64,000 nucleotides of DNA from positions 1-64,000 of the forward strand of contig CAZESS010000007.1 in NCBI GenBank assembly GCA_964514975.1. Direction: 5' to 3'. Positions within the stretch are counted from its first letter, which is position 1. The number at the start of each line of letters is the position of its first letter. The translations under genes and the position numbers were made by a program. This document shows positions 2,059 through 29,060 of the stretch, piece after piece. Source of the stretch: an uncultured Thermoplasmatales archaeon. Its GTDB lineage: Archaea; Thermoplasmatota; E2; UBA202; DSCA01. The notes under the pieces are model-generated. The model had not been told where the DNA came from, made no database searches, and was given only the letters and a program-made list of their open reading frames with translations.

Positions 2059-3129
2059 ATGGAAGTCGCTATCACAGCAGATGTACATCTTACTGACTAC
2101 GATAGCCATCCAGAAAGATACAACGCTTTAGAAGACATTTTGGAAACAATAACTAAAAAAAACAGTAGGGCTTTGATTGTTGCTGGTGATTTGTTTGATG
2201 CTTCCTCCAATAACTATGCTGACTTTGACCAGCTTGCCAGTAAATACTCAGAAATTCAATTTCATATTATCCCAGGCAATCATGACGAAACATTAAAAGA
2301 AGAAAATATACCTTCGGAAAATATTCATATTTATTCCGCACCATCCTTTGTCCCATTTGAAGGGCAAGACGAGCAATCTTTCCTATTCCTTCCATATCAG
2401 ACCGACAAGACCATGGGAGAGGCCATTGCTGAGATGCAGGATGAGTTGACTGATAATTGGATCCTGGTGGGCCATGGGGACTGGATGTCGGGGGTTGGTA
2501 CCACCAATGCATATGAACAGGGGGTCTATATGCCTCTTACTCGCCGAGATATTGACTTATTCAATCCTGTCTATGCCTTTTTAGGACACATACATAAACC
2601 TATGAAAGAAACCCATTTTTGTTATCCTGGATCGCCATGCGGAATGGACATCACTGAGACAGGCAGACGCAGATTTGTAATATACGATACATATAATAGA
2701 AAAATTGCTTCCTATCAGGTCAACACCGATATCATATATCACTCTGAAACCATTGTTCTTCTACCTCTGGAAGATGAAGAAACCCATCTGCGTGACAGGT
2801 TTACTGAAATAAAAGAGAGCTGGAATCTTACCGAAAGGGAGAAAGAGAAGACCCATATTAGAATAAAGATACGGGGGTTTACAAAAAACAAACGGCAAGT
2901 TAAAAGCATAGCAGCTGAGGAACTAGAAGATTTCAAATTTTATAATGATGAGGGTATTGACCTCTCTGAATTGTTTATGTCCGATAGTTATGAAAGGGAG
3001 GAAATTGCACAGCAGGTGAAGCAACACATCGCGGAACTGGACTGGTCAGCCAAGCATAATGAACCTGCAAAAGATGACATCTTGCTATATGCATTACGGA
3101 CAATATACGGTGAGGATTTATGGCAGTAA
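2059..3129 (+). CDS. Mre11/SbcD-family metallophosphoesterase (YhaO-like)
   Basis: ADVH, AGDLFD, PGNHD, GHG, LGHIH and YPGSP motifs. Confidence 0.9.
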   Translation: MEVAITADVHLTDYDSHPERYNALEDILETITKKNSRALIVAGDLFDASSNNYADFDQLASKYSEIQFHIIPGNHDETLKEENIPSENIHIYSAPSFVPFEGQDEQSFLFLPYQTDKTMGEAIAEMQDELTDNWILVGHGDWMSGVGTTNAYEQGVYMPLTRRDIDLFNPVYAFLGHIHKPMKETHFCYPGSPCGMDITETGRRRFVIYDTYNRKIASYQVNTDIIYHSETIVLLPLEDEETHLRDRFTEIKESWNLTEREKEKTHIRIKIRGFTKNKRQVKSIAAEELEDFKFYNDEGIDLSELFMSDSYEREEIAQQVKQHIAELDWSAKHNEPAKDDILLYALRTIYGEDLWQ

Positions 3130-5207
3130 GCATAAAAGAAATTAACATTCAAAACCTCGGACCAATCCAGGAATGCAAATGGGAACTAGGTACTCTCAAT
3201 GTGATACATGGTAAAAATGAAACGGGTAAAACCTACCTCGTAGAATTTCTCATTCGCTCTCTGTTCAAAAAACAGAATTGGCATCTCCGATCCCAGTTAG
3301 GTCGAGGAAAAATCATAGTCGAGGGACTGGGAGATACGGCCCAGTCGTTCTCGCCGTCAAGTGATACAACATTGGAAGATTATTATCCGGCTCTAGGGGA
3401 AGGCATATCGCCGGATTTATCCAATCTTCTTGTCATTAAAGGTGCTCAAGTCGAACTTGGCGCTGGGGGCGATGTGGATAGGACAATACTAAAAAAATAT
3501 TTGTCCAGTAAAAAAATTCTTGGCACCATTGAAGAAACCATTTACTATAAAACCATCCAAGATGCAAGTATCGAAGGGCACCACATCATCGCCAGCAGCC
3601 GAGGGCCTATTTCTACACGAGAAGACTTACAAACTCAACACGGAAAAATTAACGAACTTTTTGAGGAAATAAACGAAAAATATTCCGGGGGATATAGAAA
3701 ACAACTGGAGCAGCAAAAAATACAGCTTCAAGAAAAAATAACGCAGATGGAACAAGCAAAAAAACATAAGGCATATCTGCTCTCAAATCAAAAAGAAACC
3801 CTTAATCATCAACGTCAGACATACGATAAAGAGAAACTGGAATCTCTATTGCGCGATATCGAACGTTACCATGATAACAAAGACCAGCTCGAACGCACCA
3901 AAAAACGATATCAGCAAGCAGTAAAGAAAAGCAAACATTTCGAATGGCTCCAACAAGCTGCACAAGACTATGAAGCATTAATAAACAAAGTTACGACAGA
4001 GTCAACCTCTCTTGTTTATTTGCCCCTCATAATCCTGCTTTTAGCTGTTTCTGCGATTATTCTATTGTTCTATCCAATAGCCGCTCTCATTCCGATTTGT
4101 GGGGCTATCATTACGGTAATATTATACTGGCGGACTACTCGTCAGAGAGATAATAAGCCTGGAGTCCAAGATGAGATAAATAATATCGGTCGGGCTTTTG
4201 AAGAAAAATTGGGGGAGCCATTGACAGATGTTTCTCAGCTCAAAAATGAAATGGAAAATCAGAAGGAAGCATATCATCAGACACAGATGCTTGAATCAGA
4301 AGTAGAAGAGACTCAAAGGGACGTACACCAGTTGAAAAGACAAATTTGCGACAGTATTAAAACTATTACTGGCGAAGACGTTGAACTAGGTCAATGGAAA
4401 AGCGCCGTTGAAGAACAGTTGGCAGAATTAAAGAATCTCGATGACCAGATTAACGCACTTCATAACCAGCTTTTACAATTAGATGTTGACGAAACAGATT
4501 ATGTTGAAGAAGAACAACCGGCTGAATACGACCAAGCAGAATATGAGACATTAAAGCGCAAACTTCAGGACATAGAAGGCAGGATTGAAGATACAGATTA
4601 CGCTTTATCCTCGCTCAGGGATAGAATTCGGGATGTTACCGGTGATGATGTATCCGCTTCGTGGGAAACTCTCATACAGCATTTGAGAGAGAAACGCAAT
4701 GACATAATTCAGCGGTACAAGCATGTGACAGCAAAGATTGTCGGGCAAATCGCAGTAATGGACGTTCTCAAAGAGTTTAGAAAGCAGGAGGATAAAAAAA
4801 TCGTTGATAATATTCAAAGCGAGGTGGTAAGAAGACCTCTATATGAGGTTACTCAGCGTTACACTGACTATAAACTTGATGATAACACATTATATGTCAG
4901 CAATGACATCGAGGAATTTTCGTTGAATGAGTTGAGCACTGGCGCGCAAGAGCAGGTCTTTCTGGCGTTGCGTATGGGCTTTTGCTCGCGGATGTTGAAG
5001 AACCAATCTGCCTTTTTTATTTTTGATGATGCATTCCAATACTCCGACTGGGACCGACGAGAGTTGCTCATAGACAAGGCTGTTGATCTTGCTACCAATG
5101 GATGGCAGATTATCTACTTCACTATGGATGACCATATCAAACAATTGTTCGATCGCTCTGGAGCAAGCCTCGGTGACCAGTATAAGTCTTTCGAGCTAAC
5201 AATCTAG
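3120..5207 (+). CDS. Rad50/SbcC-like coiled-coil ABC ATPase (YhaN-like) with a hydrophobic hairpin
   Basis: Walker A GKNETGKT, signature LSTG, Walker B FIFDD, long coiled coil, central hydrophobic stretch; overlaps the upstream gene. Confidence 0.88.
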   Translation: MAVSIKEINIQNLGPIQECKWELGTLNVIHGKNETGKTYLVEFLIRSLFKKQNWHLRSQLGRGKIIVEGLGDTAQSFSPSSDTTLEDYYPALGEGISPDLSNLLVIKGAQVELGAGGDVDRTILKKYLSSKKILGTIEETIYYKTIQDASIEGHHIIASSRGPISTREDLQTQHGKINELFEEINEKYSGGYRKQLEQQKIQLQEKITQMEQAKKHKAYLLSNQKETLNHQRQTYDKEKLESLLRDIERYHDNKDQLERTKKRYQQAVKKSKHFEWLQQAAQDYEALINKVTTESTSLVYLPLIILLLAVSAIILLFYPIAALIPICGAIITVILYWRTTRQRDNKPGVQDEINNIGRAFEEKLGEPLTDVSQLKNEMENQKEAYHQTQMLESEVEETQRDVHQLKRQICDSIKTITGEDVELGQWKSAVEEQLAELKNLDDQINALHNQLLQLDVDETDYVEEEQPAEYDQAEYETLKRKLQDIEGRIEDTDYALSSLRDRIRDVTGDDVSASWETLIQHLREKRNDIIQRYKHVTAKIVGQIAVMDVLKEFRKQEDKKIVDNIQSEVVRRPLYEVTQRYTDYKLDDNTLYVSNDIEEFSLNELSTGAQEQVFLALRMGFCSRMLKNQSAFFIFDDAFQYSDWDRRELLIDKAVDLATNGWQIIYFTMDDHIKQLFDRSGASLGDQYKSFELTI

Positions 5208-5236
5208 AGCAACTTGTATAGCACGATACTTTTTTA

Positions 5237-5929
5237 TCAACCAAATTTTTCGATGATATGCTTCAATTCAGATGGATGATTGATTGTATAGTGGGCAGAG
5301 TTTGTACAATTCTCAAAATAGTTACGATCACCATAGGCGGCATATACTGTAGTTAACCCAAGTTTATTGCCAGGTTCGATGTCCCGTTGCAAGCTGTCCC
5401 CTACGAGTAGTGTGTTCTCAGGCTGCACACCGAGTTTTTGCATCACATAATTAAACGGGGCGCTGGCTGGCTTTTTATCTCCTACTTCTTCGCTTGATAC
5501 CACGATATCAAAATATGGGAGAAGATCCGTTTTTTCTAACCGTTGTCGCGCCCTTATAATCGTTGCATCTGTTAGCAATCCGAGTTTGATTCCTAGTTGT
5601 TTCAGATGGCTCAGCATATGTTTTATTCCTTCGTAGGGTTTTAGTGTGTCAAGTTTTTTTGTTTCATAGAGGTCTACGCATTGTTTGTAGACAGCGTCGG
5701 TATGAAGGTTTTTGTCTCTGAGATAGTCAGCGATGTTTTCTGGGTTTTCGATGCCTTTGCCGTTTTTCATGAAATAATTGAGAAGTTCTTGATGATCCTG
5801 GGCGTCTAGGTGATTGACGATTGCTTTACATGCCTGTATTTTTGTTTCTATGAAGTCGAACAGGGTATTGTCCATATCGAAAATGATGGCTTTTATTGAG
5901 GTATGTTGAGGGTTTGTAGCTTTCGGCAT
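5237..5929 (-). CDS. HAD-superfamily hydrolase/phosphatase
   Basis: FDMDNTL motif I, KKP, VGDSLQRD motif IV. Confidence 0.9.
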   Translation of the reverse strand: MPKATNPQHTSIKAIIFDMDNTLFDFIETKIQACKAIVNHLDAQDHQELLNYFMKNGKGIENPENIADYLRDKNLHTDAVYKQCVDLYETKKLDTLKPYEGIKHMLSHLKQLGIKLGLLTDATIIRARQRLEKTDLLPYFDIVVSSEEVGDKKPASAPFNYVMQKLGVQPENTLLVGDSLQRDIEPGNKLGLTTVYAAYGDRNYFENCTNSAHYTINHPSELKHIIEKFG

Positions 5930-6912
5930 AATTTGAGGTGTTTCATAAACTGATTTGCTTTTTCATTGTCAAGTAAACGAAGCTTGAGTTCGGTTGCTCT
6001 GTTCACTGTTTTACCGCGGTATTCTCCGAATATTATAGCGGAGTTAAGTTTGATGAACCCAAAGATAACAGCAGTGGTATATAGAAGTTTAATCATGTGA
6101 CGGTGAGAGCACTGATCAACCTTGAGGGTGTGAGGTGCTTCAAAGAGGAAGTATTCGAGAGTTTCCGTGTCGCAGAGGTCGGCCATGGCGTCATCAGCGG
6201 TGAGGAGCACGGGGAGCATATCTTGCTCCTTTTCTTTTTGGCGGAGGGTTTTTACGATGATTTCGTCATTGTGTCTGGTATCGGATGAGGAAGGTTCAGT
6301 GCCTTTAATGGCGATGCTTTTTCCGGCTATGCTTTGGTATTCTTGTTTAGCAAGGTATGCTGCCAGTCTTGACTTTTTTGTTTTTCCGTTATATAATTCT
6401 TCGAAAAGATGCTTGTTATAGGGAGTTTGTTGTTTGAGGGAGATGATGTTGTTGTGAGTATACTTGTAGTTGAGAGCTGCAGTTATCTCATTTTTGACGG
6501 TGTCGATAGTAAGTAGTTCAGGGCTTGCTAATGGTCTATCATGGGCAGATAGAAAACGGTAGTAGTAGAGATTGGTGTCGAGACAAAAAGTAACTTGTTT
6601 TTTCAGGTGACGATAGCTTTTTAGATTTTTATAAAATTCGGTGACGTTGGTATAGTCTTGTATTCCACTGGCGAGCATACAGGTGCGAAGATCGCTATAG
6701 GATGGCATATCTTCGTAGAGATCGGTAAATGGCGTTTTTCCGTCATCGAATTGTTCAGGTGAGCTGTCCAGAGAAAGTTCGTAGCCGGTGTCTACTGGTT
6801 TCGCTGTTAAGATAGTGAAGCCATACGGTGGATAGGAAATTTGGAGCCGTTTAGGATATAGATTCAGTAAAATCTGCAGTTCTGCTGGCTCAATAGTAAT
6901 TTCAGTTGTCAT
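5893..6912 (-). CDS. PIN-domain ribonuclease
   Basis: CLDTN...E...D...LLTADD acidic PIN pattern. Confidence 0.8.
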   Translation of the reverse strand: MTTEITIEPAELQILLNLYPKRLQISYPPYGFTILTAKPVDTGYELSLDSSPEQFDDGKTPFTDLYEDMPSYSDLRTCMLASGIQDYTNVTEFYKNLKSYRHLKKQVTFCLDTNLYYYRFLSAHDRPLASPELLTIDTVKNEITAALNYKYTHNNIISLKQQTPYNKHLFEELYNGKTKKSRLAAYLAKQEYQSIAGKSIAIKGTEPSSSDTRHNDEIIVKTLRQKEKEQDMLPVLLTADDAMADLCDTETLEYFLFEAPHTLKVDQCSHRHMIKLLYTTAVIFGFIKLNSAIIFGEYRGKTVNRATELKLRLLDNEKANQFMKHLKLCRKLQTLNIPQ

Positions 6913-7415
6913 GGTTCCGCCCGATGGTATTCTTCCATGAAATCTCGAAGGTGTTGTATTCGTAAGGGAAGCATCATATAGGGTTTAGCTGCATTTTCGA
7001 GAGAAGCTATGTCCAGGTAGAAAATATTATTGACACCGATACGGACCGCCGGGATCAGCGCCGCGGTCACCAAGGCTTTTCGGCCAGGGGTCACATCTAT
7101 AGAGATGTGCCAGTTGTCCTGTTTATGTTCTTGTACCAATTTGAAGAACTGATCCCCAATTTTGTTGAAGTTTCCTGTGGCAACCATGGAACCTATTGTG
7201 CTTTCACAGTTAAAAGTGCTTCCAACACAGCCAATGGCTTCAGTGGCTGTATCGAGATACTCTGTATATTGTTCTTCGGCTACAACAATTATTTTTTCGG
7301 GCGTGATCGAGGTTTCTTGAAGGACCGCATAATAGGAGTTGACCAGCGCCCATATACTCCGCCCAAGGATGGTGATGTAGACGCTTTCCGATTTTTCTTG
7401 CTCCGTTTGGGTCAT
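6909..7415 (-). CDS. Stand-alone CARF-like domain protein
   Basis: N-terminal ITILGRS and IDVTPGRK match CARF motifs I and II; 168 aa with no effector domain. Confidence 0.75.
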   Translation of the reverse strand: MTQTEQEKSESVYITILGRSIWALVNSYYAVLQETSITPEKIIVVAEEQYTEYLDTATEAIGCVGSTFNCESTIGSMVATGNFNKIGDQFFKLVQEHKQDNWHISIDVTPGRKALVTAALIPAVRIGVNNIFYLDIASLENAAKPYMMLPLRIQHLRDFMEEYHRAEP

Positions 7416-9028
7416 AGTTTGATGGGTTCTCCCTGCTGTGCAATGACTACATCTGAGTCAACATCTTTGAATGCCTCTGGATGCTCTGTATGTATCGGGA
7501 TGACGATGTCTGGGTGGATGTCGTGTATCATTTCTTTTATTTCGATGCCCGAGGCATGCCCTGATGCATGAAAATGGTTGAGTTGGCTGTCAGCATCATC
7601 AAGCAGGCCGAACTGCGACAGCCAGTTTTTTAGTTTTTGCTCGTCAATCGCCATCTCGTCATTGAAGGGCTCGCAGTGCGCTCTAATGTAGGTGCTATCA
7701 TCTGGGGGGCCAAGGTCGAACAGTTCGTTCATGTCATAAAATGATGCCATTACAATATAGTCGCCAGGGTTTTGCTTTATATCATAGGCTCGTATTCCAT
7801 TATAATAATGTCTGAGCGCCTGATTGATCAGATCGTGGTCTCCCTGGGTTCGAGCTTTTTTTAGCTCGTTGCATCCCCATTCGGCATGGTAGCCCAAATG
7901 ATACATGTCATGTGAATAGTCGCTTTTTGCATACAACATACTTCTCGTTCTTTTTAGATAGCAACCCATGTTTTCATATGCCTCAATAGAGCTAAATTGG
8001 TGTGGTAGCTCTTTAGATAGGTGCCAGAGCAGGTATGCCAGTTTGGGGTTCACCACTAATGTTCGGCCTGTTAGCTCCGCTACGTTTTTTAATGTTTCAA
8101 ACCGAGTGGTATCCTTCCAACCGAAATCAACAATAGCGAGGCCGTCCTTTTGTTCAATCATCTTCTGCATATCTTCTTCTACCCCTAGTTCGTCATCCCG
8201 TGCCTCTTTATCGATTCTGGTTCCTTCACACAGCAAAATATCTACAGGGGCATCTTGGATAAACAATTTGAAAGCCTTGGTTCTTTCCATAAAGCGTCCG
8301 TGAAATCTGATGTCGCCTGTATACAGCAGCCGTGTACCATCTGAAGTTACAATATAGAATGCGCTTGCCCCTGGCACGCTATGATCAACGGGAAGCATGC
8401 GGACCTGTAGAGTTCCAATGGAAATTGGCTCTTTGGATTCTATGGGCCGTATATCTCGTGGGCGTGGTTCTTCTGTTTTTATGCGAGGCTCATCAGGAAA
8501 CGTGGATCGCTCGGATGTATGGGCTATTATTCTCTTTTTTATTTGGTAGAACTCGTTTTCTATGCCGCTGCGGGAGACATCAGAGATCGCTTGTAGCATA
8601 ACCTTGGTGATTGGAGAGCAGTAGATGGGTATCTCGGGGTCTAGATAGGAAATATATTGGTAGTGATCTGCATGTGCATGGCTCAGGAGCACAGCGTCAA
8701 GGTAGGGCTTTCCTTCCTTTTTTTTGTAATCTTGGTAGCTTTGTATGTCACAGGTCCAATATTCAGGGCAATCGTAGTCAGCAATCACATCCTCTGCTAT
8801 ATCGATGAGATCGTCTCGGTAAATGCCATCAACCGCCGGGAGCATGCCTAGCTGTAGAAGATCACGCAGGCAGGAATTGGTTCGTGGCTGCAAAAACTCG
8901 TCAAAATACGCGTTCTTTTGCCCGAAACTCATTCCGAAATCTAGGAAGACTCGGGTTCCATCATTTTCGAGTAAAAATTTATTACCACCGATTTCGTTTA
9001 TGCCGCCAAAACAAGTTAGTTGGACCAT
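7412..9028 (-). CDS. Metallo-beta-lactamase/beta-CASP nuclease (RNase J-like)
   Basis: GGINEIGGN, LDFG, SHAHADH, DHS, YTGD, HASGH and PIHTE motifs. Confidence 0.9.
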   Translation of the reverse strand: MVQLTCFGGINEIGGNKFLLENDGTRVFLDFGMSFGQKNAYFDEFLQPRTNSCLRDLLQLGMLPAVDGIYRDDLIDIAEDVIADYDCPEYWTCDIQSYQDYKKKEGKPYLDAVLLSHAHADHYQYISYLDPEIPIYCSPITKVMLQAISDVSRSGIENEFYQIKKRIIAHTSERSTFPDEPRIKTEEPRPRDIRPIESKEPISIGTLQVRMLPVDHSVPGASAFYIVTSDGTRLLYTGDIRFHGRFMERTKAFKLFIQDAPVDILLCEGTRIDKEARDDELGVEEDMQKMIEQKDGLAIVDFGWKDTTRFETLKNVAELTGRTLVVNPKLAYLLWHLSKELPHQFSSIEAYENMGCYLKRTRSMLYAKSDYSHDMYHLGYHAEWGCNELKKARTQGDHDLINQALRHYYNGIRAYDIKQNPGDYIVMASFYDMNELFDLGPPDDSTYIRAHCEPFNDEMAIDEQKLKNWLSQFGLLDDADSQLNHFHASGHASGIEIKEMIHDIHPDIVIPIHTEHPEAFKDVDSDVVIAQQGEPIKL

Positions 9029-9041
9029 ATTATTTCCCTCA

Positions 9042-11114
9042 TTAATCGGTATGTTTTTCGATTATCTCTCGTATTGCCTCTATGTCAAGGTCTGATTCGT
9101 ATTTGCCAAGGGAGTAGTCAGTCCTGTAGAGTTGGTAGGCAAATTTTATGGCTGTTTTTTTATCTCTTTGTTTTACGAAATGAAGATAATTTTTTATGAC
9201 ATCTTCACGGAGGCGTTGTTCGATATTTGTTTGTTTTTTATGCTTTCTAACATCTTTTTGGGAGAGATGTTTGATGTTGATAAAATTTTGATTGATGTCT
9301 TTGAGAAAATCGCAATAATCTCTGTGATCACATGTTATTATCAGTTCGTTCATGGCACGGGTCATAGCAACGTATAACAACTTTTTTTGCTGGGTAACAT
9401 ATATGTCTCTTTCTTCTTCGTCAATATTTTTTAACCCAGAGAGAAAAAACTTGTTGTCTGCTCCTAAAATGTATACCAATGGAAACTCTAGGCCTTTAGA
9501 GGACTGCAGCGTAATACATTTCACCGTATTTGCGTTGACGTCCACTGAATCCTTGTAAAAAGACGCATTGATACCTCTTTCTTCTAATTTTTCTGCTACT
9601 TTTTTAGCATAATAGGTCCGAGGGCTCAGTACGCCAATATTTTTTCTAAGGCAGGATGCCGTATCAATTCGGTAGCTTATGTCATCTACAATCCATTCTA
9701 TCTGGTCTTGAAATGATCCATCAAATTTTAGCAGTACCGGCTTTAACCCTGTTTTTACAGAACATTCTGGGTCTAATATGTTATCCATATCTGCAATATC
9801 TGGATTTTTATCCACAAAACTTTGAGCTGCCTGCAAAATCTGTTTGGTATTGCGATGATTTTTTGATAATACGTATACATTTTTTGAGCCAATGGTTACC
9901 CCGATGTCAGCCCAGCTGAAGCCACTTTGATAAATACTCTGTGCAGCATCTGCCACTATAAACAATCGGTTTGGATCTTCCACTAACTGCATTGCTATAG
10001 AAAAAGCAATTTTATACAAATCTTGAGCCTCATCGATAATAACATAGTCATATTTTCTGCATTTGGACGTTCTCAGTGTCTCCAATGTTTTTACCAGAAT
10101 ATCAATATAATCATCTCTCCAATTTTTCAGTCTTTCGTATTCTTCGTATACTTTCCAGACAATTTTTCGTGCTTGTTGGCCGAGAGAGGTCCCACAGCCA
10201 ATCCTATCGACATCCATATATTGATCAAACTGAGCTTCGGCTCTCCCCTTAATGATTTCATCAATCTCCTTCCGCCAAAAGCTAAAATTTCTACTGAATA
10301 ATCTGCTTCGCTCATCTTGTTGCACATTTTTAACAGCTTGCTTCAATAAATCATTTAATTTTTCTTGCCATTTATGGTACTTCGGAGGTTTCACTTTCTT
10401 GTTATGTCTCTTCAGATACTTTGTGCACCATCGATGCAACGTTGAAATCTCTACGCCTTTTGGAATACCGCCCGATAACTCGCTGATTAAAGTTTCTGCA
10501 GCTTCCATTAAGCTATGGTTGTATGTAAGATAGAGAATTCTGTTGGAGTCATTGGCAAAATTTCTCATCCTATAAATTGCAATGGTTGTTTTTCCAGATC
10601 CTACCACTCCTTTCACCAAGATGGGGCTTTTATCCGTTTGTTTTCTCATGAGTTCTTTTTGTTCATCTTCCAGCCTCAGCAAAAGCTGGACAATGTCTCT
10701 GCGATAGAATCGACTGAGATGTGTTTCATCCTCAGCTTCATAGTAGACTGGTGACTGCCGTTTTTTTGAGGCATGCTGCACTAGCCATTGATCAAGTTTT
10801 AATCTCGTTTCAATACTTATCGGTAAATTTTTTAGATCTGCTACATCGGTCGCTGCTCTAACATGATCAAAATATCGTTCGGGAATACCCATTTGACGAA
10901 GAGCATCATCTTCAAGCAAAGTGAAAGGGGCTCCATCAATCCCTTCTAATGCCAGCGTTTCTCCTTCTTTCTCAAATATAATTTGCTTATCGGTCTCAAT
11001 AGTTACGGCTTCTTCCCCCTCACCTATCACTTCTGTGAGTGATGCTGATAACTTTTCTTTATCTGGATAATTTTGCAGTTGCTGAGCACAGCTTTCTTTG
11101 ACATAGATTTCCAT
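9042..11114 (-). CDS. UvrD-like SF1A helicase
   Basis: GVVGSGKT, IIDEAQD, QSIY, NHRN, SKGLEF and LLYVAMTRA motifs. Confidence 0.92.
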   Translation of the reverse strand: MEIYVKESCAQQLQNYPDKEKLSASLTEVIGEGEEAVTIETDKQIIFEKEGETLALEGIDGAPFTLLEDDALRQMGIPERYFDHVRAATDVADLKNLPISIETRLKLDQWLVQHASKKRQSPVYYEAEDETHLSRFYRRDIVQLLLRLEDEQKELMRKQTDKSPILVKGVVGSGKTTIAIYRMRNFANDSNRILYLTYNHSLMEAAETLISELSGGIPKGVEISTLHRWCTKYLKRHNKKVKPPKYHKWQEKLNDLLKQAVKNVQQDERSRLFSRNFSFWRKEIDEIIKGRAEAQFDQYMDVDRIGCGTSLGQQARKIVWKVYEEYERLKNWRDDYIDILVKTLETLRTSKCRKYDYVIIDEAQDLYKIAFSIAMQLVEDPNRLFIVADAAQSIYQSGFSWADIGVTIGSKNVYVLSKNHRNTKQILQAAQSFVDKNPDIADMDNILDPECSVKTGLKPVLLKFDGSFQDQIEWIVDDISYRIDTASCLRKNIGVLSPRTYYAKKVAEKLEERGINASFYKDSVDVNANTVKCITLQSSKGLEFPLVYILGADNKFFLSGLKNIDEEERDIYVTQQKKLLYVAMTRAMNELIITCDHRDYCDFLKDINQNFINIKHLSQKDVRKHKKQTNIEQRLREDVIKNYLHFVKQRDKKTAIKFAYQLYRTDYSLGKYESDLDIEAIREIIEKHTD

Positions 11115-11118
11115 TTTA

Positions 11119-13338
11119 TCACATAATAATTTGTTCCATTTCTTGTCCTCTTTTCAGGGCCTCTATCTCATTTATAGGGACAGTAATAGTTACATTTCCA
11201 CTAGATATCTGTTTATTTATTCGTACTCTGTGTCCTTCAACTTTGTCAATTGGATATATCTCTCCTCGCCATTGGACAAACAAATAATCTTTCGCCATTT
11301 CACGCACAGTTGATAATTCATACATCCTTTTAGTAGCCGGCCACTCAGATCCAATAGATGCAAAGATGAGGTCAAGTTGATCTAAATCTGTTAATTTGAT
11401 AGCTTGCCCCCATCTGTCAGCGATGCCAAGCATTTTGGTGACAAGTCCACCTGGCAGATGTTTGCGAAACGTATCAGCATGCGCTATTATCATCAATCTT
11501 TTTTTTGCCCGCGATAACGCAACATTAAGAAGCATCGGAAGCGCACGATGTTTTTTTTCATTGAGAAAATGGGGGGGAACGGGTGGCGCGTCACAGAGAT
11601 CCAAAATTATAACGTCTCGTTCTTGGCCCTGAAATGAGTGGATAGTATTAACAGCAACATCTAGATTAGCCACGTTTTCTTTACTTTTTTCAAGATTTTC
11701 AAGAACTTGTTTTATAATCCGACGTTGCCCTCTATATGGCGTTAAAATCCCAACAGTCGTATCTGCTTGAATACGTCCCACTATATAGGAGATTATTTGG
11801 GCATGTTTTATGTTCATTCTCGTTTCTTCCTTTGTCTCATTCCGTGCATCAAATCCACTGGTATCGATTAAAAATACGGCACCATCTGAGGGCGACATTG
11901 GCTGTTTTCTTGAAGATATGGGAATGTTTTTTAATATCTTGTTAGCGGCTGTATTTAGTTTCCCCCAGTAGAATAGCTGATTCACTATGGTGCATATGTC
12001 TGGATGCATTCTATATTGGGTTTGCAATATTGGCCGCTTCGGATATTCCTGCATCGCGTTATCTAATTTTGCGTACTCGAAAATATTTGTACCAAGCTGG
12101 GTTTCAACCCATGGCATATCAGACTGGACAATCGGAGGTAACTGATTAAAATCACCCACTAAGATAAGTGATCGATCAGTTTTCCCAGCTGCATTAATGA
12201 CTTGGGGAACAGATGCACAACTCACTTCGTCGATGATTAAAACATCGATATTTTCTAGGTAGGCATCCAGCTGACTATCTGAATATAATTTCGTTAGCGT
12301 GGTTCCTATAACTGCTGCTTCTTCAACGGCCTGATACACAATCGTTTGTAATTCAGCGTTAATTTTTTTACCTTTAGTTATTTTATCTTCAGAGATATCT
12401 GACTGATGAGCTTTAGACATAATATATCTCAGAAGCATTCTGGTGTTCATGTCTTTTTTATGTTTCATTTCCTTTTCTTCCATTACTTCAGATCCCAAAT
12501 CTAACACGGCTTTCCTAAGGTCTAGGTGTTCACGCTGTACAATTCTTTCAACAGCTTCATCAACTCCTGGCACCTTGTCATTAATTTCTGTAGAGAAATG
12601 ACCATATCGAAGGAGCTTATGCCGCTGATTGAACTTTATAGAACATGCTAATACACTGTTAAGCGCGGTGTCGACAGCTACATTGGTATGGCTTGTTAAT
12701 AAAACCCTTTTCCCACGTTGTACAAACTCATGGGTAAGAACACCTAAGGCAGTTGTTTTTCCTGTCCCCGGCGGCCCCCAGATATATAGTATATCGCTTC
12801 CAAGAGCTTTTTCTAAGGCCTTTAATTGAAACTTGTTTAAATCATATCGATGCTTCACTTTCTTTCTTCCAACATCACCATTGTTATGTAGTAGTTTTTT
12901 GATAAGATCGATGTTATAGTCTTCAGGGTTATCTTTGATAGATGTCAAGGCTTGGGAAAGTTTTTCCAACAAATATGTTAGATCAAAGATTAATCGTCCT
13001 CCTGCCAGGTCATCTCCAATGAATTCATCAAAATGTATATGTAGAATGTCCTCGTCTTTGTTACAGAATTCGATCTGGCCGAAGATGAATGGGATACCAT
13101 GTTCCTCATTTGAATAACTGACACTGGTATCTATAGGAATTTTTTTGTATAGTGTTCCAACGGCAAACTGGTACAAAAAACCGTCACCACTTTGGTCTAT
13201 GAGAGTAGCAGAGACAACAGGAAGGGGTTCGCCGATGCCTTTCCGATGCATATCACTTCGAATCCAATTTATTTCCCCAAATATCGCTTGTTGTAAGTCG
13301 TTAAACAATTGGATCTCGTCTTGTGACCACATCGACAT
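11119..13338 (-). CDS. Upf1/Dna2-like SF1B helicase
   Basis: WGPPGTGKT, IIDE, VGDFNQLPP, QYRMHP, TPYRGQ, TIHSFQG and NVALSRAK motifs. Confidence 0.92.
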   Translation of the reverse strand: MSMWSQDEIQLFNDLQQAIFGEINWIRSDMHRKGIGEPLPVVSATLIDQSGDGFLYQFAVGTLYKKIPIDTSVSYSNEEHGIPFIFGQIEFCNKDEDILHIHFDEFIGDDLAGGRLIFDLTYLLEKLSQALTSIKDNPEDYNIDLIKKLLHNNGDVGRKKVKHRYDLNKFQLKALEKALGSDILYIWGPPGTGKTTALGVLTHEFVQRGKRVLLTSHTNVAVDTALNSVLACSIKFNQRHKLLRYGHFSTEINDKVPGVDEAVERIVQREHLDLRKAVLDLGSEVMEEKEMKHKKDMNTRMLLRYIMSKAHQSDISEDKITKGKKINAELQTIVYQAVEEAAVIGTTLTKLYSDSQLDAYLENIDVLIIDEVSCASVPQVINAAGKTDRSLILVGDFNQLPPIVQSDMPWVETQLGTNIFEYAKLDNAMQEYPKRPILQTQYRMHPDICTIVNQLFYWGKLNTAANKILKNIPISSRKQPMSPSDGAVFLIDTSGFDARNETKEETRMNIKHAQIISYIVGRIQADTTVGILTPYRGQRRIIKQVLENLEKSKENVANLDVAVNTIHSFQGQERDVIILDLCDAPPVPPHFLNEKKHRALPMLLNVALSRAKKRLMIIAHADTFRKHLPGGLVTKMLGIADRWGQAIKLTDLDQLDLIFASIGSEWPATKRMYELSTVREMAKDYLFVQWRGEIYPIDKVEGHRVRINKQISSGNVTITVPINEIEALKRGQEMEQIIM

Positions 13339-13428
13339 ATCACAAATAAGAATATATTTATAAATGTTTTATCCAGTTAAAAAATTTGTGTGAATGAAAT
13401 TTAATGGGCTAACAAAAATTGGATGATA

Positions 13429-14978
13429 GGTAGATACAGATTAGCCGTCTTCATATAAAAGGCTGAGTGTTTTTGAGGGAGGCCGTCGCTCAAAAAATTC
13501 CGTAAAAAAGAAGAGAATCCCATCCGCTTTGGAGAGTGGGAATCGAAATGGGATGGGATGAGTTACAAATAGACACGCTCATAAAAACCTGTCGAAAAAA
13601 GCTGGACGAGGAGCTCAGTGATGACGGACCACAGTTCCCATTGTTCGAAAACCCGACGGAGCAACATCCGGTGGAGACCTCGGAGTTCCTATCGCATCTC
13701 CACCTAAATTTCCTGAACCGGATACCCCGTGAGCTGTTCCCCCGGCTGGAACAGATCAAGCCAGGGGTCCACGCCCGAGTACGGCTGGTGCTCTTCATGA
13801 AGCTCCAGGGCATCCAGTACATAACCGAGGCCTACCGGATCCTGCAGACCAGGCCCATCGTTGCTGAGAACCTCGGGTTTAATCCCACCCATCTGCCGTC
13901 CTATGAGACCATACGGCACTTCATCAACGATCTGCTGGCGGACATGATCGATGACATATTCTACCGTGTGGTACGGGAGATAGACCGGTATCTGTCGAAG
14001 CAGGGGGAATCGCTTGCGAAAGCCCGGGAAGATGCCACCGTGATCACCGCCCGGCGTGGCGATGCCACCGCATCGTACAGCGGCTATTACAAGACCTGGG
14101 GATGGAAAAAGGACCTGATGGTATCCGAGCAGGGCATCTTCCTCTCCTACAGAGACATGGCGATAACCGACGACGAAGGACAAGCACTCCCCTCTCATCT
14201 CGGGACACTGCAGGACCATGGCATCCGACTGGACAGCCTCATCGTGGACGGCGGATATCCCAGCTACCGGAACATCGCCATCGCCCACTGCGGATATGGA
14301 ACGACGCTGCTGTACAAGCCCCAGCAACACTAAACCTACAACGAGACGGGCAGCCCCACGGCCATACGGGAACGGTACAGCCGATACTGGCGAGACAAAA
14401 GGCATCGGCCAAACGTGGACAGCGAGTACATGCTGCAGTTTCTGTACACGAAACGGGAATATGAACGGGTCGGCGCCTGGTTCCGCAACCATCAGGTCCA
14501 CCGCTATCAGGCGAATGAGCAACTCCGAGATGAGATCGCTCAGGGGCGAAACCAGAGCGAGGGCTTCAACTCCTACCTGAAGCAACATGTGGGCTTTGAA
14601 TGCATGCTCCCCTGGAAAGGAGCGGAGCACGCGTTCTTGCACACCACGCTGTGCCTGCTATCGGTGAACCTGGTGGCGTTGACCCGGCTGCAGAACGGCG
14701 TAACGGACAACCTGACCAGCGTCGCCTATCTGACATAAATTGAGCGTGTCACCGCAAAAATGGAAAAGCATCGACGCCATTCATTCAGTGTGGGATAGCA
14801 TCACATCACGGGATATACACCCAATTTTTACCTGCTTTTTACCCGCGGCTGAACTGCGCAGGTAATTGTTGGCTGCAAACAGCCAAAAAATCGATGCGTC
14901 TGCCGCCCTCTTGTTGCATCCCGCCTGCTACATGACAAAAAAATACAGACGAAAAACCGGCAAATCTGTAACCACCCC
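13429..14978 (+). mobile_element. Insertion sequence (DDE, IS4/IS5-like), inactivated
   Basis: Imperfect terminal IRs GGTAGATACAGATTAGCCG / GGTGGTTACAGATTTGCCG (16/19). Direct repeat ATGATAGGT at 13423 and 14979. GC-richer than its flanks. Exact ends uncertain by a few bp. Confidence 0.8.
13548..14738 (+). pseudogene. DDE transposase interrupted by an in-frame TAA at 14331-14333
   Basis: ORFs 13536..14333 and 14415..14738 share one frame; EDAT, VDGGY and RNQSEGFNSYLK give the D-D-E pattern. Confidence 0.85.
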
Positions 14979-15078
14979 ATGATAGGTTAATTTTTTGAAC
15001 GTAAATATATTTATATCAAATTCAGTTTGTACATTTGATTCGTGAGATGCAAATTGGGCTAATTAACGGGTGAACCTA

Positions 15079-15927
15079 ATGGGAACTAATAATGAGACTT
15101 CGAAAAGCTTATCAGATAAATACGAATCCGCAATAAAAAACCAAAAATTTCTTCCCTTCATTAAAGCCTTAAAAGAAAGTGTGGACGCATATTCTGGCGT
15201 TCATGCAGATATTCTTTCTTACTCGCCAGATTTTTTCGCTATGATTGTTTCATTGTACAAAAAAAATCTAGCTTCCCCCTACAAATATATGATCAACTCC
15301 ACAATTTCATATTTTGTCTTACCAGATGATATATTGCCTGAAGAAGAACTGGGAGTATTAGGATATTTGGAGGATCTTTACCTCTGCGCCCATGTGATAG
15401 AAAAATTGTCCACGGAAACCCAAACAAGAGATATGGTAAAAGAGTTGTGGCAACGAGATGAAGATGTTTTCAAAGTTGCTAAAAAGATAATCGAGGAAAT
15501 AGAGGAAACTCCGAACCCATCTATTCAGGAAGCTATTCGCGAGGTGCTGACATTCAGCGGCATTAATGAGATTGAGAAACAAATAGAAAATCAAGTGCCA
15601 ACCAATGAGCGCCCCGATACAACCTCCACTACATCAAAGGAACGAGAGATACTTCGAAGTAACGAATTATTGCAGGACAGAATACCTGTCACAATTATGT
15701 TTCATTTGGCCAGTAAGGCCAAATATAATAATATGTTGAATAGCTACCTACGAAAAGCTCTTTACGATTTTGCCAGCAAAAAACATAAACAAATCGAGTT
15801 TTCTCAAAAACAAATCGATTTTTTAGAAAACATTCTACAACAGGCGATAGATGAGGGAATCGTTGAAGCTTCATGTGAAGACGACCCTTGCGATAAATGC
15901 ATCATACTTAAAGAATTGATAGGCTAA
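15079..15927 (+). CDS. YkvA/DUF1232-domain protein with C-terminal extension
   Basis: ISYFVLPDDILPE..LGVLGYLEDL resembles the DUF1232 motif; Cys-rich C-terminal tip. Confidence 0.7.
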   Translation: MGTNNETSKSLSDKYESAIKNQKFLPFIKALKESVDAYSGVHADILSYSPDFFAMIVSLYKKNLASPYKYMINSTISYFVLPDDILPEEELGVLGYLEDLYLCAHVIEKLSTETQTRDMVKELWQRDEDVFKVAKKIIEEIEETPNPSIQEAIREVLTFSGINEIEKQIENQVPTNERPDTTSTTSKEREILRSNELLQDRIPVTIMFHLASKAKYNNMLNSYLRKALYDFASKKHKQIEFSQKQIDFLENILQQAIDEGIVEASCEDDPCDKCIILKELIG

Positions 15928-17520: not shown

Positions 17521-18876
17521 TTACGTCTCTTCAGTAGAATTTTTGAACAATAATCTTTCTTTTACTTTTACCTGATTATCTCCTAGGGGTATAACCGCGA
17601 TATTGTCAGAAACATGAGATTGTATCTCCATGGTATCAACGAATAGCCAGCCTTTGATTTTATCTGATACGAATATTCTATCGGGGTTTCGCTCAAAATA
17701 TCTATTATTTTGTCTGATCAACGCCATATATTCAAGAAGTTCTTTCAGACCTTGGGCAGCATAGTTTTTAGATCGAGTATATTTGACTTCGCCGATAAAG
17801 ACCTGGCAGAGTTTTTGGTTATCTTTCTCACATTTTTCAACAAGAATATCTGGTCTTCCCCCCCACAAGGTATCTGACTTTTCCATATCTAGCATTTTTT
17901 TACATTGTGTTTGCCAGTTTTGTATCACTTTTCCTTCTCGTTTGAGGTATCCATCTTTTTCGGGTAGTTCTATGTCTGCCCAGTGCTCATAGAAACTAAA
18001 TGTACCGGTGCTATCATGATAAATACGATAGAGAAATTCACTGTCTTCCCACTCCGCCACTATATTATGGTCTCCTTCTATCAAATGGAATCGGATTGAT
18101 TTATCATCCTCTGTCATAGCTCTGATGACCTGAAACGTCCAGTATAGCTCGAAGAGAACTTCTATTTTTTCAGGTTTGATAAACGTATTCTGTAACAGTT
18201 GTTCTGCCTCGTCTGGATTAATATCAAAGTTCATCAATTTTTGATAGTCTGAAAGTAATGCTGCCGCTGTCCGGTACAGCTGTGTCCTTGATTTCCTTGC
18301 ATTTGAGATCATGCGCTGTGTGACATCTTTGTGGCCTTGTTGGCGTATACGGCGGATGTAGATATTTTTCAAGTAGACTGATTTCACGATATCGGTGAGA
18401 TTTTCTGTGGTCCATTCCTTGAGCCATGGGTGGTCGTATTGTATGGCTGGTTTGAGGTCTTGAAACACGATGTTGTGTATTATGGAGAGCAATTCTTTCA
18501 GCACAATGTTTTCGGAGATGCCATAATTGCGTTCTCGTCTGTTTACTGAAAAAAGGGTGGGGTCTGCAAAGTTTTCGCTGCATCTTTGCTTAATCGTTTT
18601 TTGCCAGTCTATTTTTCCCCGTATTTTTCCATGTTGTCGCTCGTTCTCCTGGATAGTTGTAGTTTTAATTCGTCGGATCCACTGGGGAACGTGCTCTATA
18701 AATTCTATGACATCGTTTCTGAGGACGAAATGGATGCGGAGTAGTTTTTCCATGTCATCGATGTTTAGCTCTTCATCTATTTTTTTGGTGAATGAGGAAA
18801 TATTGCCATGTTTGAGGAAGGTAATCAGATAGCTGCCTACTTCGTCGAGTAAAAATTCGGCTGTTGTTTTAGTCAT
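17521..18876 (-). CDS. mcrC: McrC-like PD-(D/E)xK nuclease
   Basis: IRGKIDWQKT, ENIVLK and RPDILV...GEVKY; start overlaps the McrB stop. Confidence 0.8.
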   Translation of the reverse strand: MTKTTAEFLLDEVGSYLITFLKHGNISSFTKKIDEELNIDDMEKLLRIHFVLRNDVIEFIEHVPQWIRRIKTTTIQENERQHGKIRGKIDWQKTIKQRCSENFADPTLFSVNRRERNYGISENIVLKELLSIIHNIVFQDLKPAIQYDHPWLKEWTTENLTDIVKSVYLKNIYIRRIRQQGHKDVTQRMISNARKSRTQLYRTAAALLSDYQKLMNFDINPDEAEQLLQNTFIKPEKIEVLFELYWTFQVIRAMTEDDKSIRFHLIEGDHNIVAEWEDSEFLYRIYHDSTGTFSFYEHWADIELPEKDGYLKREGKVIQNWQTQCKKMLDMEKSDTLWGGRPDILVEKCEKDNQKLCQVFIGEVKYTRSKNYAAQGLKELLEYMALIRQNNRYFERNPDRIFVSDKIKGWLFVDTMEIQSHVSDNIAVIPLGDNQVKVKERLLFKNSTEET

Positions 18877-21800: not shown

Positions 21801-22600
21801 TCATTAATCTTTTCACTATCACGATACTTTTTTTCCATATCAGCTAAATGGTCTCTGTCCATTTGAGAAATGGCATCCACAAATTCGCTCGGATTCTCCT
21901 CGAAGTTCTTGAGGCGCTGTGCAAAATCAAAAAGACATTTTACATATATTTTGTATTTTAGTTCATCATATCCGCTTATACAGTATAGAAAATCCTGCGC
22001 GTCCATAACGTCTGGGTTATTAACGACTCCATAATCATCTAAAAATTCTGAAATTTCGTTGCATACCAAAATATATGCCACGTATTTTTCCCCGATGTCT
22101 GATCTTGAATAATTAAATTCTAAATCGCTAAGAGCTTGAAAATGTGTAAAAAGTTCTTTCCTATACAGCGGATATTTGCGGGGATTGAATGCCGCTAAAA
22201 TAAAGGCAAAGAAGGCTGTTCCGAAATTTCCATAGGTGATTTCTTTTAGTGTATCCCGAGCTTTCTCGATTCTTTCTTGTAGGGGAATAGATCCGTTTTG
22301 TAAAAGATTAAATTGTTCTGCAACAAGTGCAGGGTTCTCTTGTGCGGCACGTTTTAGATTATTTATTTCTGACCAATAAACAAAAGAACCACTGCTAGGA
22401 TTATATTCCTCAAGTAAAGATATCTTTTTCAATATGGAATCCTTGGTAAAATTACCATCAATAAATTTTGTATGCAACCCTGGCAGTATATCCCATTTAT
22501 ACTGTTCATCCCATACTGCGGTACCTCGAAATTTTTTATATTCATTCGCAGCAATATCAAAAAAATGATCAGATTTTATTTCTTCAGCTATGTCTCCCAT
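18869..22600 (-). CDS. mcrB: McrB-like AAA+ GTPase with long N-terminal region containing EVE/PUA-like domains
   Basis: GPPGTGKS, ILDEINRAD, TMNTFD (NxxD) and AFMRRF. YWKISPG...IAIGW and YFWITAN...GDKVIFY segments. Start placed at ATG 22600. Confidence 0.9.
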   Translation of the reverse strand: MGDIAEEIKSDHFFDIAANEYKKFRGTAVWDEQYKWDILPGLHTKFIDGNFTKDSILKKISLLEEYNPSSGSFVYWSEINNLKRAAQENPALVAEQFNLLQNGSIPLQERIEKARDTLKEITYGNFGTAFFAFILAAFNPRKYPLYRKELFTHFQALSDLEFNYSRSDIGEKYVAYILVCNEISEFLDDYGVVNNPDVMDAQDFLYCISGYDELKYKIYVKCLFDFAQRLKNFEENPSEFVDAISQMDRDHLADMEKKYRDSEKINDIKHKIIKKILADEPISIEYVHKVMGQKSTTYGEAFLKSWNEFRILFQIYFIYFKPKISYLLTTLHAYLRQYKPFGDTRFDEKNTINDFSWNRNFGISSCWIALYPAGYDSHQDAAQLFLGVYHDKIMYGLAIGENIRSKVLDHDFETVPNAESFSLNQVLQKLQSVYPTFKEINNVDTTRYWKISPGKNAWNWDTCREGEFIAIGWDKTGDISQMNREEFENRRDKLVAENEDYTTEGMEQLWKFVNEIKIGDYIVANRGITEVLGLGKITEHYYFEPNEKHGHRYPVEWTDTTPKQVDEPGWRRTLLELDKQKFESITQKKLAEPFDAIFRNKHDADLAFNLLEKAFDVIGITTQDECSSVTITRSGNTLRLNYGNWAVIHFSYKGKNDYRIGMALQGDIDPDLILKQWDYFADSNVRLTELPFDVLPLNKDLLNTFKQTLTIIAERFADWDASPYRKYNQPEIVKSILDESKRSKLLEEGVEDLAPYIPEDEDLQPNYFWITANPAIWSVDSIKDGGAIFYSAVNEKGNRRRIYEAFQKARKGDKVIFYEASPVKEIVATGAIKEGLHIEPGKPAPDREVEGITIGYDNKVAGISWQQLTEVADLQDAAPIANRAQGSLFELSPKEYETILSLETPPDVPEYHSYSTVLKVNFNRNEHQLIEQSNLYFEEADNLFSQILTALKNGKHIILNGPPGTGKSKLAKEICKVFCGDNHYRMVTASSDWSTFDTIGGYMPCENQQLEFKPGVFLECFQTEKGKPANKWLILDEINRADIDKAFGALFSALTGDNVRLAQELDGNRIKVLGNPKEDDKIHPYRFFIHPDWRIIATMNTFDKASLYEMSYAFMRRFAFINVGVPKNIEEALPHLTAKWGITDLPESVKNDIVKLWTTINKYRKIGPAIARDMLNHIQQGGGYVSAISMYVFPQFEGIPQDEQINFIKELKSNGLTDDEGYARLKEMAIDFFEIPTEKFKHD

Positions 22601-22712
22601 GTCTGGATAAGTTACTAAAGATTTATTAATTTTTAGATAGCGGATTTGGAATACAACAAAATTTTTTAAAAGATTAAACCATTGTCCCATTACGAAATGG
22701 AGGAAACCATAC

Positions 22713-25829: not shown

Positions 25830-25831
25830 AT

Positions 25832-26284: not shown

Positions 26285-26285
26285 A

Positions 26286-29057: not shown

Positions 29058-29060
29058 AGT

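Follow-up and report, generated by a model that had tools for sequence, protein, structure and literature searches.

Do six co-oriented and closely spaced genes that lie together in a defence island make up one defence system? The question is raised by a stretch of 64,000 nucleotides (hereafter the window; positions 1 to 64,000 of the forward strand of contig CAZESS010000007.1, assembly GCA_964514975.1) from an uncultured Thermoplasmatales archaeon, in which the genes for an SF1B helicase, a UvrD-like helicase, a beta-CASP nuclease, a CARF protein, a PIN-domain protein and a HAD phosphatase follow one another in this order. An initial annotation of the window had put them forward as a single undescribed defence operon. 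We found that the arrangement is conserved beyond chance for four of the six genes, namely beta-CASP, CARF, PIN and HAD. The cluster is probably composite, made of a conserved beta-CASP-CARF-PIN-HAD module, which would be a ligand-gated PIN RNase uncoupled from type III CRISPR, and of a separate pair of helicases.

Four of the six genes are conserved together

Using an alignment of 15 CARF homologues, 62 loci were retrieved from archaeal contigs (one genome per species), and the content of each locus was scored by tblastn with the six window proteins (E ≤ 1e-5). The loci span Thermoplasmatota, Archaeoglobi, Methanomicrobia, Methanosuratincola, Thermococci and Bathyarchaeia, and include one metagenome-assembled genome of Promethearchaeota. 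The PIN gene lies directly 3′ of the CARF gene in 57 of the 62 loci, and in 54 of the 56 loci that have at least 1 kb of room. HAD comes directly after PIN in 28 of the 52 loci with room, and the 37-nt overlap between these two genes is identical in nine other loci. In 24/62 loci a beta-CASP gene precedes CARF on the same strand, within 150 bp in 14 of them and across 0.7-6.3 kb of inserted genes in 10; we regard it as common in the conserved module without being an obligatory part of it.

The UvrD-like helicase, on the other hand, is present at none of the 62 CARF loci, and an SF1B helicase was matched at only two, weakly (~26% identity) and out of register: on the opposite strand after HAD at L003, and as a fragment 9 kb away at L031. 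Gene-order conservation across archaea, which the initial annotation had asked about, is therefore seen for beta-CASP, CARF, PIN and HAD and not for either helicase, and the idea of the six genes as one unit failed this co-occurrence test. At one locus (L094, G034:C87, 8012-12023, minus strand) the order is permuted to CARF-PIN-HAD-beta-CASP; its CARF and PIN are 23-28% identical to those of the window and its beta-CASP is 44% identical.

CARF and PIN are a split form of a catalogued family

Neither the CARF nor the PIN protein has a Pfam match. In PADLOC, CARF matches the profile PDLC01971 (CARF_m1--CARF) at 1.2e-48, its residues 11-163 covering positions 2-154 of the 156 in the profile, and a genome-wide search with the same profile returned the window CARF at 7.3e-48. 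The PIN protein matches PDLC01973 (CARF_m1--CARF_PIN) over positions 218-456 of 465 at 3.8e-19. With these two PADLOC assignments, and Pfam for the other four proteins, the six domain calls of the initial annotation all proved right. Both proteins match the CARF_m1 family of the Makarova et al. 2020 classification as represented in PADLOC-DB (PDLC01971, 01972 and 01973), and together they are a split form of its CARF-PIN proteins. Compared with the fused CARF_m1, the window form consists of two genes with a 4-bp overlap (translationally coupled), lies outside CRISPR and has HAD and beta-CASP as partners.

The term “undescribed” consequently does not apply to the CARF-PIN part, which is the catalogued CARF_m1; of the four-gene module no description was found in the literature searched. 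This search, beyond the scope of which Makarova et al. 2020 lay, gave no description of the split form, of its HAD and beta-CASP companions, of embedded McrBC-type cassettes or of the spread in Cas10-less archaea; priority for the description of the split module is uncertain. Two CARF families fused to PIN are mentioned in passages of a paper in the literature (PMC4012209).

The CARF protein is rare, with 15 proteins including itself at E ≤ 0.001 in a search of 5.8 billion proteins, and the named sources are all archaeal. Its invariant motifs in the homologue alignment are G18-R19 and D107-x-T109-P-G111-R112-K113; lying after beta1 and beta4 (GRS and DxTPGRK), they would form the ligand pocket. 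The AlphaFold2 (AF2) models of the PIN protein and of CARF have predicted local distance difference test (pLDDT) scores of 94.1 and 87.6, respectively. The PIN protein is laid out as an N-terminal alpha/beta domain (residues 1-100), the PIN domain (~105-260) and a C-terminal domain. Its acidic residues D112, E142, D216 and D240 are invariant in two alignments, of 24 and 50 homologues, and we take four conserved acidic residues as the criterion for a PIN nuclease. In the tree of the split-form PIN proteins, which is in broad agreement with taxonomy, the window PIN is on a long branch among the Thermoplasmatota at moderate support.

Comparison of the models with solved structures gave a consistent picture for the two proteins. 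Residues ~100-260 of the PIN model resemble many PIN domains at Z 8-11, and the model as a whole (1-335) superposes on residues 151-418 of SiRe_0806 from Sulfolobus islandicus (PDB 9jxw and 9jxx, solved with cyclic tetra-adenylate, cA4) at Z 16.8 (root-mean-square deviation, rmsd, 3.7 Å; 244 aligned residues); the next-best PDB entry reaches Z 11.2 and matches the PIN domain only. For the CARF model, the match is to residues 1-138 of SiRe_0806 (Z 15.4, rmsd 2.3 Å, 135 aligned). Because CARF and PIN match the two halves of SiRe_0806, together they would rebuild one CARF-PIN architecture, of which the three parts are common to SiRe_0806 and the window pair. SiRe_0806 is one chain, whereas the window has two polypeptides, and the identity is 15-18%. 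The likeness is one of folds: a PDB sequence-profile search with the CARF and PIN alignments returned nothing meaningful, and the activity of SiRe_0806 is known solely from the titles of the PDB entries, no paper on this protein having been found in the literature search.

The predicted complex of CARF and PIN scored 0.87 against 0.49 for the best control, a level that is attained by 58 of 80 solved complexes and by 2 of 110 mismatched pairs. Of the contacts, at least 96% are common to the runs, the partner has a pLDDT of at least 85, and the predicted interface falls on conserved residues (10-17 and 324-339 of the PIN protein; 143-153 of CARF). In these models CARF would bind the N-terminal domain and the C-terminal helix of the PIN protein, which would rebuild the fused architecture. 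The suggestion of the initial annotation that CARF gates PIN thus gains backing, at the level of models, from the fused homologues, the SiRe_0806 fold matches and a complex prediction above its controls. A CARF sensor combined with a nuclease effector is likewise the plan of Csm6/Csx1, Can1/Can2 and Card1, the CARF folds of which match at Z 12-15; their effectors are however HEPN or PD-(D/E)XK domains, while the window effector is a PIN domain in a separate protein, with no Cas10 or CRISPR found.

The split form lies apart from type III CRISPR

Nearly all that is understood of CARF effectors concerns the reception of cyclic oligoadenylates made by Cas10. The genome, which is 98.9% complete, gave no match to Cas10 palm2 (PF22335; the control matched 6 of 14 known genomes), to Cas1 or to GGDEF, and its sole match to SMODS (CD-NTase) is the CCA-adding enzyme; minimal Cas10-like polymerases were covered only via the SMODS and GGDEF profiles. 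No CRISPR repeat array was found in positions 1-40 kb of the window. The earlier observation that the window is devoid of Cas10, CD-NTase and CRISPR array was borne out, and the absence of Cas10, Cas1, GGDEF and CD-NTase extends to the genome. As no Cas10 was found in the genome, we do not regard the window pair as a type III accessory. Type VII Cas14 was rejected as well: the only match was partial (3e-6, for a cut-off of 800 bits), and none of the six proteins or of ten scanned neighbours was identified as a Cas protein by the PADLOC profiles.

The same separation is seen in other genomes. CARF_m1 is carried by 32 of the 401 genomes of the phylum and, besides this genome, by 0/11 of the same family and 0/4 of the same genus. 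Cas10 is present in 14 of the 401; four genomes carry both, and 28 of the 32 CARF_m1 carriers are therefore without Cas10. Five further carriers were checked, of which one has Cas10 and two are complete Methanosuratincola genomes without it. In the Thermococcaceae (97 genomes), 90 genomes match the CARF_m1 profile and 39 have Cas10. Sorting these matches by hand into split (strong, in short frames) and fused-type (weaker, in frames of 346-548 aa) places the split form in 84 of the 97 genomes, 54 of these 84 being without Cas10. Fused-type matches fall in Cas10-positive genomes in 18 of 19 cases and 16 lie <16 kb from Cas10; all six genomes with a fused-type match only have Cas10.

Three of these fused-type genes, at L109, L110 and L111, encode full-length CARF_m1--CARF_PIN fusions of 480-494 aa (E 1e-194 to 1e-210). 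At L109 (genome G417, 3715-11780), the one locus with its neighbours scanned, the fusion is back-to-back with Csx1 and adjoins Cmr1-Cas10-Cmr3. In genomes that hold both, the split form lies away from Cas10, with one exception seen, in G442, where 15 kb separate the two. The CARF_m1 CARF-PIN family has two forms, a fused one that is linked to type III-B and a split one outside CRISPR, and we suggest that the split lineage has left type III CRISPR.

Alternatively, the pair could be an orphan type III accessory, served in trans by cyclic oligoadenylates from a Cas10 on an unassembled replicon or mobile element and, in Cas10-less genomes, persisting as a decaying relic or as a sponge for signals made by invaders. 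It does share its family, CARF_m1, with the fused form next to Cmr, its fold matches a cA4-bound protein, and Cas10 is found in 4/32 CARF_m1 carriers versus 10/369 other genomes, in counts that ignore relatedness. Nevertheless, the catalytic and pocket residues are invariant across Cas10-less lineages, unlike what is expected of a relic; the Cas10-less Thermococcaceae carriers and the two complete Methanosuratincola genomes also speak against it, as does the distance between the split form and Cas10 in genomes that hold both. We consider an orphan accessory highly unlikely.

Neighbours of the module in other archaea

All open reading frames (ORFs) of the loci were clustered, and representatives were run through Pfam and PADLOC. 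In the Archaeoglobi loci L003, L005, L007 and L010, an AAA_5 McrB-like gene and a PF10117 McrC gene stand between beta-CASP and CARF. The same position is taken at L022 by an AAA protein and a DUF2357/PD-(D/E)XK protein and at L002, the Thermoplasmatales locus nearest to the window in the PIN tree, by a SNF2-type helicase, an AAA_23 ATPase and a DUF1232 protein. This last protein (DUF1232 / C2H2 zinc finger; 4577-5683, minus strand) is 40% identical over 302 aa to the DUF1232 protein of the window. An RmuC gene and a Csa3-like CARF3-wHTH regulator are often found upstream of the module. SbcCD-like pairs lie upstream of beta-CASP in L003 (1223-5201) and L004 (2846-6562), and BLAST found no close homology between these and the SbcCD-like pair of the window.

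As McrBC occurs between beta-CASP and CARF elsewhere, coupling to sensors driven by nucleoside triphosphates (NTPs) could be a general theme. In the Archaeoglobi both McrB and McrC are inside the module, while the McrB-like gene of the window is outside the six genes; given the embedded McrBC, the recurrence of such a neighbour in the window (17521-22756) may matter. One can imagine a self-contained alarm module that works without a cyclase, in which CARF would sense a breakdown product of nucleic acid, or another nucleotide, that arises from the action of an adjacent sensor-nuclease driven by NTP (McrBC in the Archaeoglobi, SF1B and UvrD-like helicases here), with beta-CASP possibly the maker and HAD the eraser of this signal. 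We hold this to be possible, though rather unlikely.

An ARPP-1 domain protein (2.4e-99) is encoded two genes upstream of beta-CASP at the Methanolinea locus L038 (6637-7740, plus strand) and recurs in L046 and L047 (cluster c57).

The Thermococci present another context. There the order is DUF2284-CARF-PIN, in a fixed chromosomal setting beside SDR and PBP genes and without beta-CASP; no DUF2284 was found in the genome studied here. A housekeeping RNA-processing operon was the alternative against which the initial annotation had set its proposal, and the near-universal pair and fixed context in the Thermococcaceae lean towards it. Under such a reading the four genes serve RNA or nucleotide turnover in ordinary decay or quality control of RNA, with PIN as an RNase regulated by a metabolite or by RNA ends, beta-CASP as a second RNase, HAD as a nucleotidase, and the island location as an incidental result of horizontal transfer. 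The mostly taxonomic PIN tree and the occurrence of the split form mostly in genomes without Cas10 would fit, and beta-CASP RNases and HAD nucleotidases are classical enzymes of RNA and nucleotide metabolism. A CARF regulator outside immunity is also to be considered: RtcR of RtcR-RtcAB senses damaged tRNA ends without Cas10 and beside RNA-end-processing enzymes. We take it as a lead only, RtcR being a sigma54 activator that controls transcription, not a nuclease, and the cluster having no RtcA or RtcB.

Against housekeeping stand the patchy distribution outside the Thermococci described above, down to the family and the genus of this archaeon, the location of the module on a low-GC, integrase-bounded island, its recurrent neighbours (McrBC, RmuC, SbcCD-like pairs and Csa3-like CARF3-wHTH regulators) and a nearest paralogue that is a type III-B CRISPR accessory. 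On balance we judge a housekeeping role unlikely.

The beta-CASP nuclease and the HAD phosphatase

The beta-CASP protein combines a metallo-beta-lactamase fold with RMMBL (8.4e-5, Pfam), and it matches the RNase J profile of NCBIfam at 5e-16, far below the cut-off. Across 17 near-full-length homologues, H117-x-H119-x-D121-H122, D215-H216, D239, E268, H487, H491 and H513 are invariant; the assignment of these residues to motifs A-C is our assumption. The metal site is intact, and RNA, not DNA, is the presumed substrate. A shorter (~470-aa) relative of the beta-CASP protein occurs in 46 of the 54 genomes of one family of the phylum (f3) at ~1e-39, which suggests a lineage-wide paralogue with another role.

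The HAD protein matches HAD_2 at 2.5e-33 in Pfam and, in NCBIfam, HAD-SF-IA-v1 with 50.5 bits (above the cut-off of 23.3) and TIGR02253 with 134.5 bits (below the cut-off of 169.75). Residues D18-x-D20, T120, K153 and D178 are conserved in 23 homologues (motif IV D178/D183). The cap type of HAD enzymes is linked to the size of the substrate, and the capped, small-molecule type of this protein fits nucleotides rather than polynucleotide ends. Judged by their conserved motifs, beta-CASP, HAD and PIN are catalytically intact.

The helicase pair reads as a separate module

The SF1B protein matches AAA_11 and AAA_12 of Pfam at 1.8e-31 and 8.4e-33, with the helicase core at about residues 142-626 between an N-terminal (1-140) and a C-terminal domain (627-739), and with the Walker A motif GPPGTGKT at residue 188. 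Its closest homologues are 38% identical, and remote ones are helicase-PLD fusions of ~1050 aa. The UvrD-like protein matches PF00580 (2.5e-27) and UvrD_C in Pfam, contains GSGKT and DEAQ, and is distinguished by a conserved domain at its N-terminus (about residues 1-140). The ATPase motifs are intact in both helicases. In NCBIfam the two gave sub-threshold IGHMBP2-like and PcrA/UvrD matches, and Pfam at E ≤ 1 gave no match for the end domains of either helicase, for the flanks of the PIN domain or for the beta-CASP insert. A search of the Atlas with the UvrD N-terminus (145 residues) gave sub-threshold leads only (0.86 to a “RelE family” cluster), which we do not use as evidence. Two UvrD-type helicases that are 27-28% identical (P0032 and P0040) carry a ParE/RelE toxin domain, by PF05016 or by JGI name.

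Named helicase systems are matched in part. The SF1B protein covers positions 586-1081 of the 1112 of the MkoA profile (3.5e-68) and also matches MkoC (2.4e-36); these Mokosh matches lie in the helicase core and leave the N-terminal 585 positions of MkoA uncovered. The UvrD-like protein matches the GajB profiles of Gabija (to 4.9e-33) and a NERD+UvrD profile over the helicase core only. Complete Mokosh was rejected, with no MkoB profile match among the six proteins, and so was complete Gabija, with no GajA profile match among the six proteins and ten neighbours. The expectation of the initial annotation that no complete named system would be found was borne out, the PADLOC profiles having given only the MkoA and GajB helicase-core matches for the six proteins.

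The UvrD-like protein has just two close homologues among the 5.8 billion proteins (56% and 43% identity), and a search of the 400 other phylum genomes, four of the same genus among them, gave no match to it at E ≤ 1e-20. Scanning metagenomes with the UvrD alignment gave a single close relative, the 2.6-kb contig L077, which carries the C-terminal part of an SF1B homologue (47% identity over residues 665-729) and, beginning one base later, the 56% UvrD homologue; no beta-CASP lies within 250 bp downstream of the latter. Furthermore, in the NCBI/Logan records a contig of 15,635 bp is given for an SF1B homologue (P0138, 38%) and likewise for the 43% UvrD homologue (P0018), which hints at a third instance of the pair without proving it. 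We read the SF1B and UvrD-like genes as a separate, rare two-gene module that may have been placed before the conserved one.

These observations bear on the original idea of one integrated six-gene defence system, in which the helicases sense, a ligand is produced or destroyed by beta-CASP, PIN is gated by CARF and HAD performs the reset. The tight spacing, the single TATA-like element 5′ of the SF1B gene and the location in a defence island all favour integration, and the module hosts NTPase sensors (McrBC) elsewhere. But the helicases are missing from the CARF loci apart from the two weak SF1B matches, the UvrD-like gene is missing from the 400 other genomes of the phylum, the pair on L077 stands without a nearby beta-CASP, and the module is present without helicases in dozens of genomes. 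An integrated six-gene system is in our opinion quite improbable.

Genomic setting of the cluster

The coordinates, common orientation and spacing of the six genes were confirmed as originally given: from SF1B to HAD there are gaps of 4 and 13 bp and then overlaps of 4, 4 and 37 bp (Table 1). A TATA-like element, TTTATAAATA, which we take to be a TATA box by the archaeal consensus, is the candidate promoter for all six genes. Judging from the spacing and from this single element, the helicase pair is probably co-transcribed with the conserved module.

Table 1. Features of the window around the six-gene cluster and on the island
Feature	Coordinates	Strand	Description
SF1B (Upf1/MkoA-like) helicase	11119-13338	minus	739 aa; Pfam AAA_11/AAA_12
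UvrD/Rep-type SF1A helicase	9042-11114	minus	690 aa; Pfam PF00580 + UvrD_C
Beta-CASP metallo-beta-lactamase nuclease	7412-9028	minus	538 aa; Pfam Lactamase_B_2 + RMMBL
Stand-alone CARF protein, family CARF_m1	6909-7415	minus	168 aa; PADLOC profile PDLC01971
PIN-domain RNase (predicted)	5893-6912	minus	339 aa; PADLOC profile PDLC01973, C-terminal part
HAD-IA phosphatase, capped, small-molecule type	5237-5929	minus	230 aa; Pfam HAD_2
TATA-box-like TTTATAAATA	13355-13364	minus	17-26 nt 5′ of the SF1B start codon; read from sequence
SbcD/SbcC-like pair (calcineurin-like phosphoesterase + SMC/Rad50-like ATPase)	2059-5207	plus	convergent to HAD
DUF772 transposase fragment	13536-14333	plus	just upstream of the six-gene cluster
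DUF1232 protein	15070-15927	plus	
EVE-AAA_5 McrB-like gene	18869-22756	minus	1295 aa; PDC-S02-like region + EVE + AAA_5; ~5.5 kb upstream of the cluster
463-aa gene overlapping the McrB-like gene	within 17521-22756	minus	follows the McrB-like gene
DUF499 (1038 aa), DUF7680 (150 aa), DUF1156 + N6/N4 methylase (928 aa), SNF2 helicase with N-terminal PLD (1225 aa)	22713-32738	plus	
Tyrosine integrase	35748-36689	minus	at the GC step near 36 kb; inner end of the island

The cluster sits on a low-GC, integrase-bounded defence island. The guanine-plus-cytosine (GC) content is about 0.38-0.51 over 1-36 kb of the window and 0.53-0.61 beyond; by gene it is 0.38-0.39 for the helicases and 0.45-0.46 for beta-CASP and CARF, a difference that fits a separable helicase pair. 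That the genes lie inside a defence island, as first annotated, is upheld by this GC step, the integrase, the McrB-like gene and the DUF499/DUF1156-methylase/SNF2-PLD cluster. The latter four genes look like a restriction-modification-like defence system. The 463-aa gene beside the McrB-like gene matches no family and does not resemble McrC. The start of the window is the end of the contig. Among the sequencing runs listed, this DNA occurs in the probable source metagenome only, and in no RNA run. No tRNA, tandem array or Rfam family was found in the island, and no tRNA in the whole window. The high-GC core part (39808-63409, minus strand) contains very long ORFs of 1396, 2381, 724 and 3110 aa.

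A proposed mechanism and its significance

For the composite reading, which we hold to be probable, we propose the following mechanism. The CARF pocket would sense a ligand of nucleotide type, for which the analogy with SiRe_0806 and its bound cA4 makes an oligoadenylate the most likely candidate, and binding of the ligand would switch on the metal-dependent PIN RNase, leading to RNA cleavage and growth arrest. The beta-CASP and HAD enzymes may degrade RNA fragments, the ligand or both to nucleosides, acting as co-effector or as off-switch; this is the weakest step of the proposal. The helicase pair would have landed upstream on the island, and a functional link between it and the module is conjectural.

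A number of observations weigh against this mechanism. As no ligand producer (Cas10, GGDEF or CD-NTase) was found in the genome, the signalling role is by analogy only, and passages of Shah et al. 2018 (PMC6546367) report weak cA4 binding and no induced RNase activity for the Sulfolobus CARF-PIN protein ST0035. As fold matches to CARF, VC1899, the Sis0811 ring nuclease and Can2 all come within 1 Z of SiRe_0806, and the CARF-PIN pair may have passed the complex prediction through its likeness to a solved fused homologue. HAD does not follow PIN in 24 of the 52 loci with room, and both accessories, beta-CASP and HAD, may therefore be loosely coupled. The beta-CASP subfamily is common outside the module (99/401 genomes of the phylum), and most of the closest beta-CASP homologues are in genomes without CARF_m1 and in unconserved contexts. 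Finally, the near-universal split pair (84-90/97) and its fixed synteny in the Thermococcaceae have the look of core genes rather than of mobile defence.

Should the cyclase-less alarm module be true after all, it would be a CARF pathway whose message is written by a nuclease and not by a polymerase, and it would explain why a type III effector lineage is conserved in dozens of Cas10-less archaea. For annotation, the four-gene module is recognisable as a unit, and the helicases are to be treated as a separate, rare two-gene module. The Thermococcaceae, in which the split pair is so frequent, include genetically tractable laboratory species. Identification of the ligand would reveal either a new source of oligoadenylates or a new kind of CARF ligand, and it would also tell the role of a widespread archaeal CARF-PIN gene pair.

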